A stretch of 64,000 nt of DNA, taken from a virus (Duplodnaviria > Caudoviricetes). The notes under the pieces were generated by a model. The model was given only the letters and a program-made list of their open reading frames with translations, ran no database searches and had not been told where the DNA came from. Position numbers and translations under genes: made by a program. The stretch covers positions 192,001 to 256,000 of the IMG/VR virus record IMGVR_UViG_3300029288_005873. One strand, written 5' to 3'. Position 1 is the first letter of the stretch; the number at the start of each line of letters is the position of its first letter. Below are positions 15,287 through 45,326 of the stretch, one piece after another.

Positions 15287-15605
15287 TGAGCCCAGCAGGA
15301 TTCGAACCTGCGACCAACTGGTTAACCTGCCACACTTGCTTTCACAAGCCAACTTTTCGGAGTTGTTGTGGTCTGGACCATATCTTCACCCTCAACATTA
15401 CTTGGTCGGGTGTTCTGCTCATGGCCTCTGAGGACTCCCAAAATATTCTGGGTTGCCTGCGGATTATCCAATCTTTAACATTTTTACTCATAGTGAGTAG
15501 TTAAAGCTCTAAGGACGTTCCCGCATATCGCAGAATTCATTTCATATATTACTATATGAACGCTCCAATCGAAGCCAGTTGCTCTGCCAACTGAGCTATG
15601 GGCCC
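15287..15605 (-). tRNA. tRNA-Lys(UUU), intron-containing (exons 15572-15605 and 15287-15325)
   Basis: GGGCCCA..ACTGG-CTT^TTAA-CCAGT..GCAGG-TTCGAAT-CCTGC-TGGGCTC-A. Confidence 0.93.
15326..15571 (-). ncRNA. group I intron in tRNA-Lys anticodon (34/35)
   Basis: P1 GCUU^C/GGAGC with U.G at the splice site, R CUCAGAGGCCA, S AAGAUAUGGUCC, terminal G. Confidence 0.9.
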
Positions 15606-27257: not shown

Positions 27258-27261
27258 TAGT

Positions 27262-27637
27262 TGGACGTGCCGGAAGTCGAATCCGGGTCCGCAACATCTT
27301 GATCGTGAAGTCATCCACATGCTTGGTTTCCATTTACTATTCCAGCAGGCGGGAAACGCGCCCATACTGAAAAGACCCATTGAGGCATTTTCGGTGGAAG
27401 TCTCAGGGTTTGAGTAGCTTCCTTAGTAGCCTCTCCCTACAATCCCTGTCCGATGACGCCGATCCCCAGAGTCACAGGGCCGGAGCCCGAGGTCAGCGGA
27501 TGCTAGGCAGCTGCCAGCATCTGGTTCGCGTTGTTGTTCGCGTTTGTTGTCTGTCCCAGTTTTTTCATGGCAGCCTGGAACACCTGCCAGCATGCACTCC
27601 AGTCTCTCAATACCACGTCGATACCAAATTCACGCCC
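27262..27637 (-). ncRNA. ssrA: tmRNA, tag ANNNANQMLAAA* (27503-27541)
   Basis: 5' GGGCGTGAA..TCGAC, 3' GGACCCGGATTCGACTTCCGGCACGTCCA, G3.U70 pair, GCATG/CATGT helix, tag ending LAAA. Confidence 0.95.
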
Positions 27638-29284: not shown

Positions 29285-29476
29285 CTGTAGCTTGTTAATC
29301 TCGAACCCTATTACCGAGGATCTCGATTTCCTTCTCCATATCGCCGATTATAGCATCGAGAGCCTTTCGGCGCTTCCCACCCAGACCAACCACGAGACCT
29401 GACAGGACCATCACCAGTTTTCTTAGCATCTTATCCATCGTCATCTCCTTTTATTTGCGGATTGGACTATGCCGAC

Positions 29477-29947
29477 TCATTCGGCGTTTGGGCGGATCTC
29501 CGTTTCCTTCTCGCGACACTCCTTCCATTCCTTGCTTCCGTGGGCCGTCAGCAAGACGTTGAGCTGGAAGGTCAGGACCTTCCCATCGACCTCGATCTGA
29601 ACCTTGTCGCCGTGATGAAACCCGACCGATCCAGTTTTGAACTGTTTACCCCTGACCACACACCTCCTGAGAACATCGGACGCCATCAGCGGACTTGCGG
29701 ACATGATGGCCGATTTGATGCCGGAGTCGACATACTGCCTGTCGTTCTCGATCGCTATCAGGTTTATCCCCAGCTGGAAATCATAGCTGGTATTACCACA
29801 CCTGATCGGGACAGATCCTTGGGCAAAGAAGCCGACCTTGCCGGTGCCGAACGTTTTCGGCTCCAGAACGGTATTCCCCAACACCTTATTTAGGTTGATG
29901 GGTTGGGTCTCCAGGACATCGCTTTTGTATCCTTCCCTCTTCGCCAT
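29477..29947 (-). CDS. tandem FxTGSxG-domain protein (paralog of 44418..44882)
   Basis: Two copies of F.TG.VGF...G.V......FQL..N. Confidence 0.7.
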   Translation of the reverse strand: MAKREGYKSDVLETQPINLNKVLGNTVLEPKTFGTGKVGFFAQGSVPIRCGNTSYDFQLGINLIAIENDRQYVDSGIKSAIMSASPLMASDVLRRCVVRGKQFKTGSVGFHHGDKVQIEVDGKVLTFQLNVLLTAHGSKEWKECREKETEIRPNAE

Positions 29948-30915: not shown

Positions 30916-31043
30916 TGGTTGGGTCGCCAGGACTCGAACCTGGATCTTTCAGGCTTATGTGCCTGCCCGAGTTCACGGGATTCCAGCTCTAGCTGGTTAT
31001 GTTGCCATAGGCAACCTACAAGTCGCCATTACACCACGACCCA
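30916..31043 (-). ncRNA. 128-nt multi-armed tRNA-like RNA
   Basis: TGGGTCG/CGACCCA acceptor + ACCA, CCAGG-TTCGAGT-CCTGG T arm, four hairpins between D-like and T arms. Confidence 0.75.
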
Positions 31044-40888: not shown

Positions 40889-41096
40889 CGTTTCCTCCTT
40901 GGAATCTTCGGGCGTTGCCCTTGAAAACCTCAATACTCTGTGGGTCTCAAGGGCAGCCCCCGAAGGGCTGCTTAAATTCACTATCGTATTTTGGAGTCAC
41001 CGCTTAGTGCCAGGTCATACCATTCCTCTTCAGGTTAGGTTTTTCCTATTCGCACATGCGCTTCTCGCAGTTCTAGACGTGAATTTTTGAAGCTAC

Positions 41097-41364
41097 AACC
41101 TAGGGCCAGGTCATACTCTTTCCCTCGTTAGCAGGCTTTACAACTCATACCATATACACCTATATGGTACACACATACGCTTATATAAGTTTTAAACATG
41201 AATTTGGAGTTATAACCTAGGGCCAGGTCATACCTTTTCCCTCGTTAGCAGGCTTTACAACTCATACCATATACACCTATATGGTACACACATACGCTTA
41301 TATGTTTTAAACATGAATTTGGAGTTATAACCTAGGGCCAGGTCATACCTTTTCCCTCGTTAGC
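41097..41364. repeat. AT-rich tandem repeat, 115-117 bp unit x about 2.3
   Basis: AACCTAGGGCCAGGTCATAC at 41097, 41214 and 41329; internal TACCATATA/TATATGGTA palindrome. Confidence 0.92.
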
Positions 41365-41559
41365 GTGGATTTTGGGGTCTCTCCATTCGCCCATGCGCTT
41401 CTCGCAATCTTTGATGCTAAACAAAGACAAGAAACCACAGGTTACTTCGGGTGCTCTCGCCACGGCATTTGGTTTTTCCTTACGGGCATTAGTGCCCAAC
41501 TGCCTATGACTTCGATATACAAACTTCCCCTCGGGTCCTGCCTGCTGCCTCCCCCTCAG

Positions 41560-41655
41560 TGGCACCAAGTGGGTTTGAACCACCAGCCCTCTCTGTCCGA
41601 GAGTCGGATACTCGGGACCGGAGCCCCGGTTGCCCGCCCCTGTGGCGGTGGTGCC
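41560..41655 (-). ncRNA. 96-nt tRNA-like RNA downstream of rpsL
   Basis: GGCACCA/TGGTGCC acceptor + A, GGTGG-TTCAAAC-CCACT T arm, three or more internal hairpins, no 7-nt anticodon loop. Confidence 0.65.
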
Positions 41656-41715
41656 GAAACGGTGGGACCATAACCCTCGTTAAGCTATGGTCCCACCGTG
41701 CTGCTCAACACTTCC

Positions 41716-42120
41716 CTACTTCTTCGCCCGCTTCACCCCGTACTTGCTCCTGCTCTGGTTCCGGGGGTTCTTCTCACCACCGTTGCGGACCGTGTCTCCC
41801 GCAGCATCCGTCCCCTTGGCACCACGCACGATGTGATACTTCACACCGGGCAGGTCCTTCACCCTGCCGCCCCTGATCAGCACCGTCGAGTGCTCCTGCA
41901 GGTTGTGCCCGATTCCCGGGATGTACGCGATCACCGTGATCCCGTTCGACAGCCTCACCACCGCCACCTTGCGGTTCGCGGAGTTCGGCTTCTTCGGACC
42001 GACGGTGTACACCCTCAGGCACACACCCTTGCGCTGCGGACATCCCTGAAGCGCTGGCGCCTTGGATTTGTTCGCCAAACGCTTCCTACCTTGCCTCACC
42101 AGCTGGTTGATCGTCGGCAT
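41716..42120 (-). CDS. rpsL: 30S ribosomal protein S12 (uS12), phage-encoded
   Basis: [53 protein letters not shown]; GGAGG RBS. Confidence 0.97.
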
Positions 42121-42442
42121 CTCCGTCCTCCTCTTCCTGAAGCATTGCGTCGATTTCCTCGATTTCATCCTCCGAGACACCATTGTCCAGGAGGATTTTC
42201 CTCATTTCCTCGATACTACACTCCTCGAGCACGATCTCCCTGCGATCACCCTTCTTCGCAAGGATGTGGTCCAGCTCCTTCTCATGCTTCGCCGCCTCGT
42301 GCCGCAGACGGTTGACGCACGAAAGAAGCTTCTCGTTCTTCACGTGAGCCTTCTTCAGAAGATCCATCATCTCCTCGGCCATCGATGATACCGTTGATAC
42401 CGCATCCAGACGCTCCGTGACCGAACTCGAATTCGAACCCAT
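42086..42442 (-). CDS. coiled-coil acidic protein overlapping the rpsL start
   Basis: 118 aa ORF, AAGGAG RBS, directly after twister 1. Confidence 0.65.
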
Positions 42443-42481
42443 CGCTCATCTCCTTATCGGGCTGTAATCCTCACGTCCCTT

Positions 42482-42545
42482 TCCATCCCTCTGCGTTTTC
42501 ACGGGCTTGGGACCGTCGTCCCTTTGGGACGGCCGCATTGATGGA
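42482..42545 (-). ncRNA. twister ribozyme (type P1), copy 1
   Basis: UCCAU-CAA-UGCG-GC-CGUCCC/GGGACG-ACGG-UCCCAAGC-CCGU-GAAAA-CGCA-GAGGG-AUGGA. Confidence 0.9.
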
Positions 42546-42790
42546 GCCCGCCTAGCGCCTGGATGCGCATCGGCGGGCGGCACGGATATGTGCCTTGTGC
42601 GCTCCCCAATTGTATGATCCGCATGTCGGGGAATGTCTTCCTCTCGCTTAGCGGGGAAGCTCTGTCCCATGCGGACCGCCCCATGTAGACTGTCCGCTAG
42701 CTGGGGCGCAAATGCCAGCGGACCAAGTATGCTCAAATAGTGACGGGAATCTCATTCCCTCATCCCTTCTGATGCTGTAGCTATCAGCAC
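42546..42790 (-). ncRNA. candidate large pseudoknotted RNA ending at twister 1
   Basis: Intergenic; at least six stems and two loop-to-downstream complementarities (CGCCCCA/UGGGGCG, UCCCC/GGGGA). Confidence 0.5.
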
Positions 42791-42801
42791 CTATTTTTTC
42801 G

Positions 42802-43224
42802 TTAGTTCATCTTGGCGTCCATGGCGGCAACAACATCTGCCGCCATCTCCTCTACCGCCTTGTCGATCCCCATCTCATCGATCATCTCTTGGGCGCTGTC
42901 AGACAGACACATGACATTGACACCCTCCGGCACTAGGTCCAGGTCCTCCTCAGTGAAGAACCCAGCCTCGACCTTGGCGCGGTTCGGAGAGGCTAGGACC
43001 AAGTCCCTGTTGGGCATCTCCACCAGAATGCCGTCGTCCATCAGCTCCACAACCGCATACAGCATCTGTGACCGTCCGAGATCGTCCGAGCACATGTCGC
43101 AGAGCACCTCGAACGAGAAAGGCGCTTTCCTGCCCTCCACCAATCCGAACAGGAAAGCCTCCAGAACCTGGCTCCTCATTGTCTGATACCCGAATATCGC
43201 CTCTTCCGTCCTGTAAATCTTCAT
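42802..43224 (-). CDS. hypothetical protein (possible winged helix)
   Basis: 140 aa ORF, ATGA overlap. Confidence 0.6.
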   Translation of the reverse strand: MKIYRTEEAIFGYQTMRSQVLEAFLFGLVEGRKAPFSFEVLCDMCSDDLGRSQMLYAVVELMDDGILVEMPNRDLVLASPNRAKVEAGFFTEEDLDLVPEGVNVMCLSDSAQEMIDEMGIDKAVEEMAADVVAAMDAKMN

Positions 43225-43267
43225 GGTCGTCTCCCCTTGTATGATGAGGTGGACTCTCCCACGATCT

Positions 43268-43633
43268 CTAGCGCACTTTGAATCCAGCCTCCATGCATTT
43301 CCAGCGCGGAACTTCGGCTCCTACGGAGCCCATGAACCGTTCCGAGAGAAGCCGCGCTGAGAATTCGTCCCTCGTCATCGCGAACGCCAGAACCGCACAC
43401 CACCCCTCCTGCTTGGCCAGGTCCATCGTCAGCAGCTCCATGGGAATGCTCCTGGCGCTGGACAGGGAATTGTTGTCCGTGTCGCTGAGCTTCAGCAGCA
43501 TCTCCAGACCGCTGAGGACCTGTTCCATGTGCGATTCCATGGCATCATCGGTCACGTTATTGCTGACCCAAAGCCGGAGAGACACTACCAGTCCAGCTAT
43601 GAGATCCCTGTTTACCGGAACCATGACTTTCAT
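43268..43633 (-). CDS. hypothetical protein
   Basis: Start MKVMVP after AGGAGG. Confidence 0.6.
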   Translation of the reverse strand: MKVMVPVNRDLIAGLVVSLRLWVSNNVTDDAMESHMEQVLSGLEMLLKLSDTDNNSLSSARSIPMELLTMDLAKQEGWCAVLAFAMTRDEFSARLLSERFMGSVGAEVPRWKCMEAGFKVR

Positions 43634-43720
43634 GTCGTTCCTCCTAGGGTTGTACACCTTTCCAGGAAAATTTCTCCTGGACCGAAATGCCGATCTGAGT
43701 TTTGGGAAAAACGCTAAGGC

Positions 43721-43948
43721 TCAGAAGTCAGAGTGCTCCTTTGTGCGGTAGTTAACCACATCCTCCACAAACTCCTGAATGGAACCTACCCACACTTGGA
43801 TATACTCCGGCAGCCCGAAGGGACGAATTATGTTCTCTGGCTTTGTCCCCTCTGGCACCACACCCAACAGCTCGGGTGAACTGTATGAGCCGCCTATCCA
43901 GCAAACCACGAGCGGTTTCGGTTTGACACGTCTTACCTTGTCAGCCAT
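43721..43948 (-). CDS. hypothetical protein
   Basis: 75 aa ORF. Confidence 0.55.
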   Translation of the reverse strand: MADKVRRVKPKPLVVCWIGGSYSSPELLGVVPEGTKPENIIRPFGLPEYIQVWVGSIQEFVEDVVNYRTKEHSDF

Positions 43949-43986
43949 GGCTTTAACACCTTTTGGCTATTTTTCAGCCACGCATT

Positions 43987-44016
43987 AAAAGCCCCCCAGG
44001 AGGTATTCTGGGGGCT
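43987..44016 (-). terminator. intrinsic terminator
   Basis: GC-rich stem AGCCCCCAG../..CTGGGGGGCT followed by a T run on the minus strand. Confidence 0.75.
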
Positions 44017-44053
44017 CTATGGCTCCGGGTCCTGCGGACCCATCCATGCTTTT

Positions 44054-44260
44054 CTACGTCCCCGCCGTTTCCGCAGCCTCATTGAGGGCTCGGGAGATCC
44101 TTTTGCTGAGCTGGGTCGGGGTCATATTCTCCAAGGCTGCCTCCAGGAGGTTGCCTGCTGCTTCGAGGAGGGTTCGTGTTACGCGATCAAGTTCCAGCTC
44201 GGCGATTGTCCACGTCTCCGCCATCATGGTAGCGACGCTTTCCCTCTGCTCTTTGGTCAT
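44054..44260 (-). CDS. small helical protein
   Basis: 68 aa ORF, AAGGA RBS, directly after twister 2. Confidence 0.65.
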   Translation of the reverse strand: MTKEQRESVATMMAETWTIAELELDRVTRTLLEAAGNLLEAALENMTPTQLSKRISRALNEAAETAGT

Positions 44261-44284
44261 GGCGTTGTCCTTTCACCTACATTT

Positions 44285-44349
44285 CCCCACCCCTCCGCAT
44301 TTGCACGGGCTTGGGACCGTCGTCCCGAAGGGACGGCTGCGTTATGGGA
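44285..44349 (-). ncRNA. twister ribozyme (type P1), copy 2
   Basis: UCCCA-UAA-CGCA-GC-CGUCCC/GGGACG-ACGG-UCCCAAGC-CCGU-GCAAA-UGCG-GAGGGG-UGGGG. Confidence 0.92.
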
Positions 44350-44417
44350 GGGGCGCGAGGCGCCCCTTTATGTAGGACCTCCGGTCCTTGGTAGGGGAGT
44401 TGTAGAGCTTCTAGCTC

Positions 44418-44882
44418 TTAGTCGGTGGTGGGGCGCTCGGCGGGGCGGTCGTCGTCCCAGGTATCGGAGCCGATGGCGACGACGGAGCAGCTGAGCTGGA
44501 GGGCGAGACCGGCGACAGTGGCTTTGCCGTTGGCGTAGAAGCCGCACTTGCCGGAGGCGAAGATACGGGCGGTGGCGACGGTCTGGTCGATTTTGAGGGA
44601 CTTGAGGGTCTGGGGCTCGAGGGCGAGGAACTTCTGGATATCCTCGTCCTTGAGGCGTTTGGGGTCATCGGGCTTGGAGTGGGCGAGGGTGACGTTGAGG
44701 GAGACCTGGAAGGTCTTGGGCTCTCCGGCGACGTCGAGGGTGACCTTGCCGTTGTGGTTGAACCCCACCGAGCCGGTGGAGTTGGTGCGGGGCTCCATGG
44801 CACCGACGCCCAGCTGCTTGAGGCTGATGCTGCCCATGGTCAGGACGTCGCTCTTGAACCCCTCGGTCTGCTTCTTCGACAT
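44418..44882 (-). CDS. tandem FxTGSxG-domain protein between two twister ribozymes
   Basis: Paralog of 29477..29947; strongly C/G-ending codons; AAGGAG RBS. Confidence 0.75.
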   Translation of the reverse strand: MSKKQTEGFKSDVLTMGSISLKQLGVGAMEPRTNSTGSVGFNHNGKVTLDVAGEPKTFQVSLNVTLAHSKPDDPKRLKDEDIQKFLALEPQTLKSLKIDQTVATARIFASGKCGFYANGKATVAGLALQLSCSVVAIGSDTWDDDRPAERPTTD

Positions 44883-44923
44883 GGTACATTCTCCTTCGGG
44901 ACCTTTGGTCCCATGTTAGGGTT

Positions 44924-44988
44924 GCGCCCCTCTGCGTTCGTCCGGGCTTGGGACCGGCGCCTCACCATTGAGGCGGCCGCATTGGCGC
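44924..44988 (-). ncRNA. twister ribozyme (type P1), copy 3
   Basis: GCGC-CAA-UGCG-GC-CGCCUCA/UGAGGCG-CCGG-UCCCAAGC-CCGG-ACGAA-CGCA-GAGGG-GCGC. Confidence 0.9.
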
Positions 44989-45086
44989 TGGAGGGGTTGA
45001 GTATCAGAGCCCCCTCCGGGCTCCGGGGTTGGGCCAGGCTATGCGCCCCCTTCCAACCACTGGCGGCGTCCCGCCAGATGAGATGT

Positions 45087-45266
45087 CTATCGCGTGATTC
45101 CCATCAACTGCTCGGCCTTCCTCGTGTTCCTGGTCCTGTAGTGGAGGGGGCGGCATTTATTGATGTCCCCAGCAGCCCTCCTACGGCTTGGCGGACAGAT
45201 CTCCACCTCCACCGTTTGCCCATCAATCACCTCGATGCGGACATTCTTGGCTTTCATCGCCTTCAT
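45087..45266 (-). CDS. small basic protein (59 aa, below ORF-track cutoff)
   Basis: MKAMKAKNVRIEVIDGQTVEVEICPP..; first ORF after promoter-like motif copy 2. Confidence 0.5.
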   Translation of the reverse strand: MKAMKAKNVRIEVIDGQTVEVEICPPSRRRAAGDINKCRPLHYRTRNTRKAEQLMGITR

Positions 45267-45295
45267 CCTTGGCAGCGATTTTCCCTCGCGGGTTC

Positions 45296-45326
45296 AAAAC
45301 ATCCGCGGAAATTTTTCGCTGCAAAA
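45296..45326 (-). promoter_or_regulatory. conserved 31-bp promoter-like motif, copy 2
   Basis: TTTTGCAGCGAAAAATTTCCGCGGATGTTTT. Confidence 0.65.

Follow-up and report, generated by a model that had tools for sequence, protein, structure and literature searches.

The stretch analysed here (the window) comprises 64,000 nucleotides (nt) of a phage genome, positions 192,001 to 256,000 of IMG/VR record IMGVR_UViG_3300029288_005873, and the subject of this report is its minus-strand block at positions 41560-45326, in which three twister self-cleaving ribozymes alternate with small genes, structured RNAs and an rpsL gene for ribosomal protein uS12. The reading we favour, with moderate confidence, is that the block is a twister-punctuated, GC-rich expression island of a family of large phages, and that rpsL, together with the gene preceding it (gene X), constitutes a mobile two-gene module carried as separable cargo in this island. 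The genome is circular (its ends overlap), 441,904 nt long and 44% GC, with 24 tRNA or transfer-messenger RNA (tmRNA) calls, and the metagenome behind it was probably taken from a landfill. Its most GC-rich 10 kb (0.58 vs 0.44 overall) contains the block, and the assembly is backed by a single contig from the probable source run, which covers positions 41335-45004 with 0 differences. All the elements listed in an initial annotation of the block, made from the sequence alone, were present, and their order and coordinates held. Four further features came to light, namely a pseudoknot RNA immediately 5' of twister 3, a second repeated motif past the terminator, a 17-bp hairpin behind rpsL and the constant pairing of the 118-aa gene with rpsL. 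In what follows, L followed by three digits and P0130 are labels of fetched comparison records (relatives' loci), and X2 and X4 are sequencing runs.

The Rfam model for type-P1 twisters (RF03160), which had been suggested as a check, gave three full-length matches of 59.5-65.1 bits, all on the minus strand: twister 3 at 44924-44988 (E 6.7e-12), twister 2 at 44287-44348 (E 3.1e-12) and twister 1 at 42483-42544 (E 1.7e-13). A genome-wide scan of the 441,904 nt found none beyond these three. Because the scores fall just below the Rfam gathering score (67.2 bits, a curation threshold and not a structural feature), a default Rfam scan overlooks them; a close homologue, L116:6459-6520, clears the cut-off at 67.6 bits. 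Judged by their fold, the three are real type-P1 ribozymes. The P1-P2-P4 architecture with open P1 (P3 being optional) is found in the three copies, with the P1 register of twister 2 shifted by one nucleotide, and pseudoknots T1 and T2 are intact in all three and show two-sided changes among relatives. The GA after P2 is retained, and the cuts that had been predicted (44984|44983, 44344|44343 and 42540|42539) fall at the conserved N^AA positions. The distances from twister end to start codon, 41, 25 and 40 nt, lie within the 25-45 nt first estimated.

The compensatory changes in P2, P3 and P4 among the three copies were seen as initially described, and the comparison was extended to an alignment of 13 twisters (the three of the window and 10 from relatives), in which 94.3% of cells were paired and 13 of the 19 pairs, both pseudoknots included, showed two-sided changes. 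None of 500 shuffles matched the score of this alignment, and slid controls collapsed. Moreover, a strain contig over twister 3 (one contig, depth ~5) differed at only 2 of 256 nt, and the two differences jointly swapped one P1 pair from C-G to U-A. The covariation in 13 copies and the strain-level swap bear out the claim that the twister fold is under selection; self-cleavage of the three copies can be inferred from their family membership.

Twisters 3 and 2 flank gene Y (44418..44882, 154 aa), which belongs to a conserved phage family of 24 matches counting itself, the others being 50-87% identical. An intact twister stands on both sides of Y in the window, L115 and L116, and the pieces predicted to be excised measure 640, 634 and 635 nt, respectively. 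Elsewhere the flanks are less regular, with one twister and a half copy next to Y in L113 and L117, while in L114 the single twister downstream of Y is accompanied by a degenerate copy upstream. Among ten genes compared, Y showed the strongest codon bias (GC content at third codon positions 0.92, 32 codons used), which suggests a high output. Its structure model was confident (predicted local distance difference test score 91) and matched no known fold clearly (lowest Foldseek E 0.08; highest VIA Z 3.5), a result that does not imply a new fold. Neither X nor Y had a Pfam or PHROG family, an Atlas search with both returned nothing convincing, and no relatives of Y were found in viral_contigs or genome_contigs. 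A Y paralogue at 29474-29947 (-) is more similar to the Y-like genes found ahead of X-rpsL in L012 and L112.

The arrangement as a whole recurs in L116, which reads, in order, a promoter-like motif (motif 1), a 59-aa gene, a pseudoknot RNA, a twister, Y, a twister, a terminator, two copies of a second motif (motif 2), a large RNA and a twister. The last twister is followed directly by a tRNA-like RNA and then by a homologue of the window's 40888 gene; X and rpsL are absent from this array, indicating that twister 1 is independent of the S12 module. In the synteny comparison, then, the twisters go with Y in the relatives, and the supposed link to S12 is missing from L116. Counterparts of twister 1 itself were found in L011 and L116, and another twister precedes X in L012.

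Each of the three predicted cuts is preceded, within a few nucleotides, by a hairpin or pseudoknot, which would fit protected 3' ends. Upstream of twister 3 lies an undescribed RNA of ~70 nt (44990..45058) that forms an H-type pseudoknot and ends 6 nt before the cut; L115 and L116 retain it, and two of the changes there are compensatory. Twister 1, in turn, sets the 3' end of an undescribed RNA of ~220 nt (42541..42760; z-score -3.6) with two predicted pseudoknots. Its homologue in L116 likewise ends at a twister cut and is divergent (76% mean column identity), with the helices and both predicted pseudoknots kept through compensatory changes; pattern scans for further copies gave 90 matches, of which 0 were supported by profile or partner helix.

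The tRNA-like RNA that closes the block (41560..41655) has a 7-bp acceptor stem, three internal hairpins and a T-arm and lacks CCA. ARAGORN calls it a tRNA, but it was rejected as a canonical tRNA gene, as the Rfam tRNA model (RF00005) does not match and three hairpins replace the D-arm and the 7-nt anticodon loop. In its predicted fold the acceptor stem is stacked on the T-arm, as in substrates of ribonuclease (RNase) P, and processing by this enzyme may be inferred. It occupies a position equivalent to that of a covarying tRNA-like family in the relatives (L113, L115 and L116), to which it is not detectably homologous. The members of this family (L116:7658-7771, L113:4594-4707, L114:963-1076 and L115:3001-3115) carry a hairpin inserted in the D-arm region and are overlooked by both ARAGORN and Rfam; a pattern scan for additional ones gave zero matches. 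A long hairpin RNA upstream of X-rpsL, with two inner stem-loops whose loops seem complementary, is common to L012 (5836-5950) and L112 (9289-9410). No Rfam match was obtained for the pseudoknot, 220-nt, tRNA-like or L012/L112 hairpin RNAs. A second multi-hairpin tRNA-like RNA, with an encoded CCA and a z-score of -3.2, lies at 30916-31043 (-), directly after tRNA-Arg.

The most surprising part of the block is the X-uS12 module. Identification of rpsL (41716..42120, 134 aa, ATG at 42120) in the initial annotation was confirmed by a full-length match to PF00164 (E 1e-34) that includes the decoding-loop and D88 motifs. The protein keeps PKKPNSA and KDLPG, has asparagine instead of leucine at position 48 (L48N) and a C-terminal loop longer by 10 residues. 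Its closest matches are ~30 metagenomic proteins with a variable C-terminal loop 7-16 residues longer. We compared 32 such phage-type copies with 80 bacterial S12 sequences chosen by similarity to one 125-aa query: position 48 was N in 20 of the 32 phage-type proteins and L or M in all 80 bacterial ones, and the C-terminal segment measured 20-29 aa in the former vs 13 aa in the latter. In a quick tree, 33 of 35 phage-type rows came together (Shimodaira-Hasegawa-like approximate likelihood ratio test, 81) on long branches, which falls short of showing a single origin. The window S12 grouped with other phage-type copies and with none of the bacterial lineages sampled, and S12 did not identify the host. 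Against the S12 (83% identical) of the distinct phage L012, nonsynonymous and synonymous divergence (pN/pS) were 0.17/0.63, indicating purifying selection. All the fetched contexts of phage-type S12 lacked rpsG and were phage-like, often with tmRNA, tRNA, L12-like or Pth2 genes nearby; for example, the downstream genes are L12-like in L013 and L021 and Pth2 in L017. S12 matches in cultured-phage records (50-72% identical), judged as a group, look like host contigs. We considered whether the window locus might itself be a fragment of a host str operon and discarded this, as rpsG, fusA and tuf do not follow rpsL, in contrast to L007-L010 and L106, which are host operons.

Gene X (42086..42442, 118 aa), with a core helical hairpin of ~70 aa and an acidic tail, is the usual upstream partner of phage-type rpsL, and in the window the two genes overlap by 35 nt. 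A homologue was directly upstream of, or overlapping, rpsL in 12 of 17 phage-like loci, and a profile search with X yielded ~33 clusters. At least 15 of 34 X sequences terminate in an out-of-frame reading of the S12 start, compared with a null mean of 0.09. P0130, in which X was known from the profile search alone, was fetched as a test, and rpsL does follow. A fusion or frameshift of X and rpsL was ruled out because the junction differs among loci: the two genes overlap by up to 35 nt or stand a few nt apart. X and S12 are most likely translationally coupled, and S12 most likely enters host 30S subunits. Directly 3' of rpsL, a hairpin of ~17 bp (41660..41698, z-score -5.8) could act as a weak terminator or as a processing site. 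In a strain contig that joins position 42247 to 41645, the 41645-41700 stretch, consisting mainly of this hairpin, is found upstream of X. A 107-aa gene that follows rpsL in L013 (606-929) and L012 (6707-7030) has a homologue elsewhere in this genome, at window positions ~164-442.

The initial annotation had read the arrangement as serving a stabilised S12 message, bounded by a ribozyme at its 5' end and an RNase P-type substrate at its 3' end. The geometry holds in this genome, and since the twister-1 cut lies 97 nt upstream of X, any message bounded by it would comprise X and rpsL. The distinct phage L012 also has a twister before X-rpsL. Beyond the window, L011 (nearly identical to it) and L012, which together make up two lineages, no twister was found before X in the other X-rpsL loci scanned, although in L004, L005 and L006 the positive control was silent too. 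In L012 and L013 another gene comes immediately after rpsL and no tRNA-like RNA was found there, and L116, as described above, keeps the array without X-rpsL. These observations make it unlikely that the array evolved for the S12 message, and we retain the island with separable cargo as the better description.

The remaining elements suggest how the island may be transcribed. Motif 1 (45293..45323), which is not of the sigma-70 type, recurs across the genome in 8 copies, each located on the coding strand a short way ahead of a start codon (genome positions, minus strand: 76211, 103504, 128559, 169648, 182236, 210060, 237322 and 241452), and occurs also in L112, L113 and L116. No sigma-70 promoter was found within the block, and motif 1 is a putative promoter. 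It precedes an accessory open reading frame (ORF) of 59 aa (45087..45266), which has a 90% identical homologue in L116 and is left out of the strain sequences of runs X2 and X4. Downstream of twister 2, a 68-aa ORF without family match (44054..44260) is followed by an intrinsic-terminator-like hairpin with a U run (43985..44014; hairpin 43993-44014), and a similar hairpin occupies the same position in L116 and L114. Past it come the sole two copies of motif 2 in the genome (43654..43974, starting at 43974 and 43674), matched by two in L116 and one in L114; motif 2 is a possible re-initiation signal. Three accessory genes of 75, 121 and 140 aa (42802..43948) are absent from this position in L116, and those of 121 and 140 aa are present in L011. 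The block probably consists of two transcription units divided by the terminator.

In the mechanism that we consider to fit best, motif 1 would drive the first unit and twisters 3 and 2 would cut it in three: a leader with the pseudoknot RNA at its 3' end, a single-gene Y mRNA of ~635 nt, and an mRNA for the 68-aa gene ending at the terminator. Motif 2 would possibly restart transcription past the terminator, and twister 1 would then release the X-rpsL message from the RNA ahead of it, which terminates in the 220-nt structure; the message would extend to the post-rpsL hairpin or to a site where RNase P cuts ahead of the tRNA-like RNA. Each constitutive cut would leave an upstream RNA ending in a hairpin or pseudoknot with a 2',3'-cyclic phosphate, and a downstream RNA that begins with the folded twister and carries a 5'-OH. 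Conserved among the products would be the Y mRNA and free structured RNAs, namely the 220-nt RNA and the pseudoknot RNA, joined in L116 by the tRNA-like RNA, and self-cleavage would uncouple the lifetimes of the products without need of host nucleases. The S12 made would be used in assembly of new 30S subunits or in repair, with X as helper or regulator. The idea that the phage cuts its own transcript into units, already put forward in the initial annotation, is the best reading.

Several observations weigh against this interpretation. All three twisters score under the Rfam gathering cut-off, by 2-8 bits, and the predicted accessibility of the start regions is no better after cleavage. The 220-nt RNA is known from one divergent homologue only, and the window tRNA-like RNA has no sequence homologue and a z-score of only -1.9. 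The degenerate or half twisters beside Y in some relatives (L113, L114), together with the Y paralogue that has no twister, indicate that cleavage is not essential for the Y family. Finally, uS12 is a core protein and not of the exchangeable type that viruses usually carry (PMC6375957), and hence a route of phage S12 into ribosomes is hard to see.

Whether the 5'-OH ends would be stabilising or destabilising depends on the decay pathway of the host. In hosts with RNase E, 5'-OH ends resist 5'-monophosphate-dependent decay. Cleavage could conversely destabilise or time the messages, as with glmS in RNase J hosts, and allow a quick shut-off of early island genes. Cleavage of glmS does trigger decay (PMC6765202), and the high GC content sets the island apart as what resembles a self-contained, strongly expressed region; nevertheless, the hairpin or pseudoknot ending at each cut, the twister body capping each 5' end and a codon bias in Y suggestive of high output all speak against it, and we regard this explanation as quite improbable.

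Even less probable, in our view, is that host RtcB ligates the twister-flanked Y piece into a circular mRNA, a natural counterpart of Tornado RNAs. Twister cleavage leaves ends of the RtcB type. The length of the Y piece is conserved, and a 9-bp pairing, predicted at p ~0.99, joins the ends of the window piece and would hide the catalytic strand of the twister; this pairing, however, is shifted in L115 and absent from the minimum-energy fold of L116, and the folding program ignores the twister pseudoknots. Ligation would also recreate a cleavable site, the phage encodes no RtcB and only an ATP-dependent RNA ligase, and circles were not detected for tandem hammerheads (PMC3088659). Least credible of all is the view that the twisters are remnants of mobile cassettes or recombination scaffolds and S12 a functionless, decaying host capture: variable cargo between the elements and the existence of half-twisters would suit it, but covariation reaches strain level, and S12 is intact, under purifying selection and grouped with phage-type copies rather than with the sampled bacterial lineages.

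Building on the island with its X-uS12 cargo, a bolder proposal can be put forward only tentatively, and we think it doubtful as it stands. Many large phages would share an old, undescribed two-gene system in which X, a small helical protein, escorts to host ribosomes, or installs in them, a phage-specific uS12 that has an added loop and an altered surrounding of the decoding loop, retuning or repairing the decoding centre. In the present lineage a self-processing RNA island would express this system, and the island's twisters would in addition set free new pseudoknotted and tRNA-shaped RNA classes.

Other features were recorded in and around the island. An AT-rich 117-bp tandem repeat of 2.4 copies with an internal hairpin lies at 41086-41364 (degenerate copies to ~40990), and a 9-nt stretch of it also makes up the loop region of the post-rpsL hairpin. 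The eight GGWCC-N3-GGWCC palindromes of the genome are all in or near the island (38913, 40207, 44027, 44375, 44898, 47016, 49501 and 54760); they recur in L113-L116 and might form a protein-binding hairpin. Elsewhere the phage encodes a tmRNA (27259-27637, -), a group I intron (15356-15581, -), the ATP-dependent RNA ligase (PF09414, genome positions 148459-148947) and a member of the CCA-adding or poly(A) polymerase family (PF01743, genome positions 172595-172969, -).

A ribozyme-punctuated phage block is in itself an already known arrangement. What is new here is the X-uS12 module, a fixed twister-flanked gene family (Y) and, supported by covariation, three or four structured RNAs that had not been described. 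The conserved twister-Y-twister unit is a well-delimited case in which to ask what self-cleaving ribozymes are for in bacteria and phages, a question of long standing. The viral ribosomal proteins described to date are mostly loosely bound, exchangeable ones; phage-type S12 is seen in many unrelated phage fragments, and a widespread phage uS12 with a fixed partner would, if true, carry phage influence as far as the decoding centre itself.

With respect to known systems, the three ribozymes share with type-P1 twisters (RF03160) the P1-P4 helices, both pseudoknots, the N^AA cut site and the GA after P2, and differ in nothing structural, the low scores and the shifted P1 of twister 2 aside. Ribozymes flanking phage genes, and the hypothesis that they process transcripts, were published in 2011 (PMC3088659) and have since been reviewed, together with twisters, as unresolved (PMC6765202). 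In those clustered prophage hammerheads (Perreault et al. 2011, PMC3088659), several co-oriented intergenic ribozymes likewise flank single genes or short blocks; tandem copies were shown to cut such transcripts, and cutting of polycistronic RNA into gene-sized mRNAs was proposed. The genes that they flank are, however, 'not constant', whereas here ribozymes flank one and the same family (Y) in several phage lineages, and the predicted cuts also define the ends of structured non-coding RNAs. The theta ribozymes at the 3' ends of phage tRNAs (PMC10879173) are similar in that a phage ribozyme, and not a nuclease, sets the end of a neighbouring structured RNA, but they are hepatitis delta virus-like and act on canonical tRNAs, while the twisters described here delimit pseudoknotted RNAs at their 3' ends and are located 5' of tRNA-like RNAs. 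The window tRNA-like RNA has, as bacterial Y RNAs (Yrl) and mascRNA-type RNase P substrates do, an acceptor stem and T-arm without canonical anticodon arm; it differs from them in having no Rfam match and native rather than permuted ends, and no Pfam match to TROVE (PF05731) was found in the genome, though long profiles can overlook weak matches.

We found no report of phage-encoded uS12 in the open-access literature: Mizuno et al. (2019) used the S12 profile PF00164, and S12 appears solely in their profile list (PMC6375957), whereas Al-Shayeb et al. (2020) name S1, S4, S21 and L7/L12 (PMC7162821). Compared with rpsL of the bacterial str operon (PF00164), the phage gene product is 65-75% identical and keeps the K42/K43 loop, PNSA, K87, D88 and P90, but its locus lacks rpsG, fusA and tuf, its C-terminal segment is longer and N48 is common. 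Like the virus-encoded ribosomal proteins known to date (PMC6375957, PMC7162821), it is a single ribosomal protein gene that evolves under purifying selection and belongs to phages with many tRNA, tmRNA and translation genes; unlike them, uS12 is a core protein of the decoding centre and is accompanied by a dedicated partner gene.

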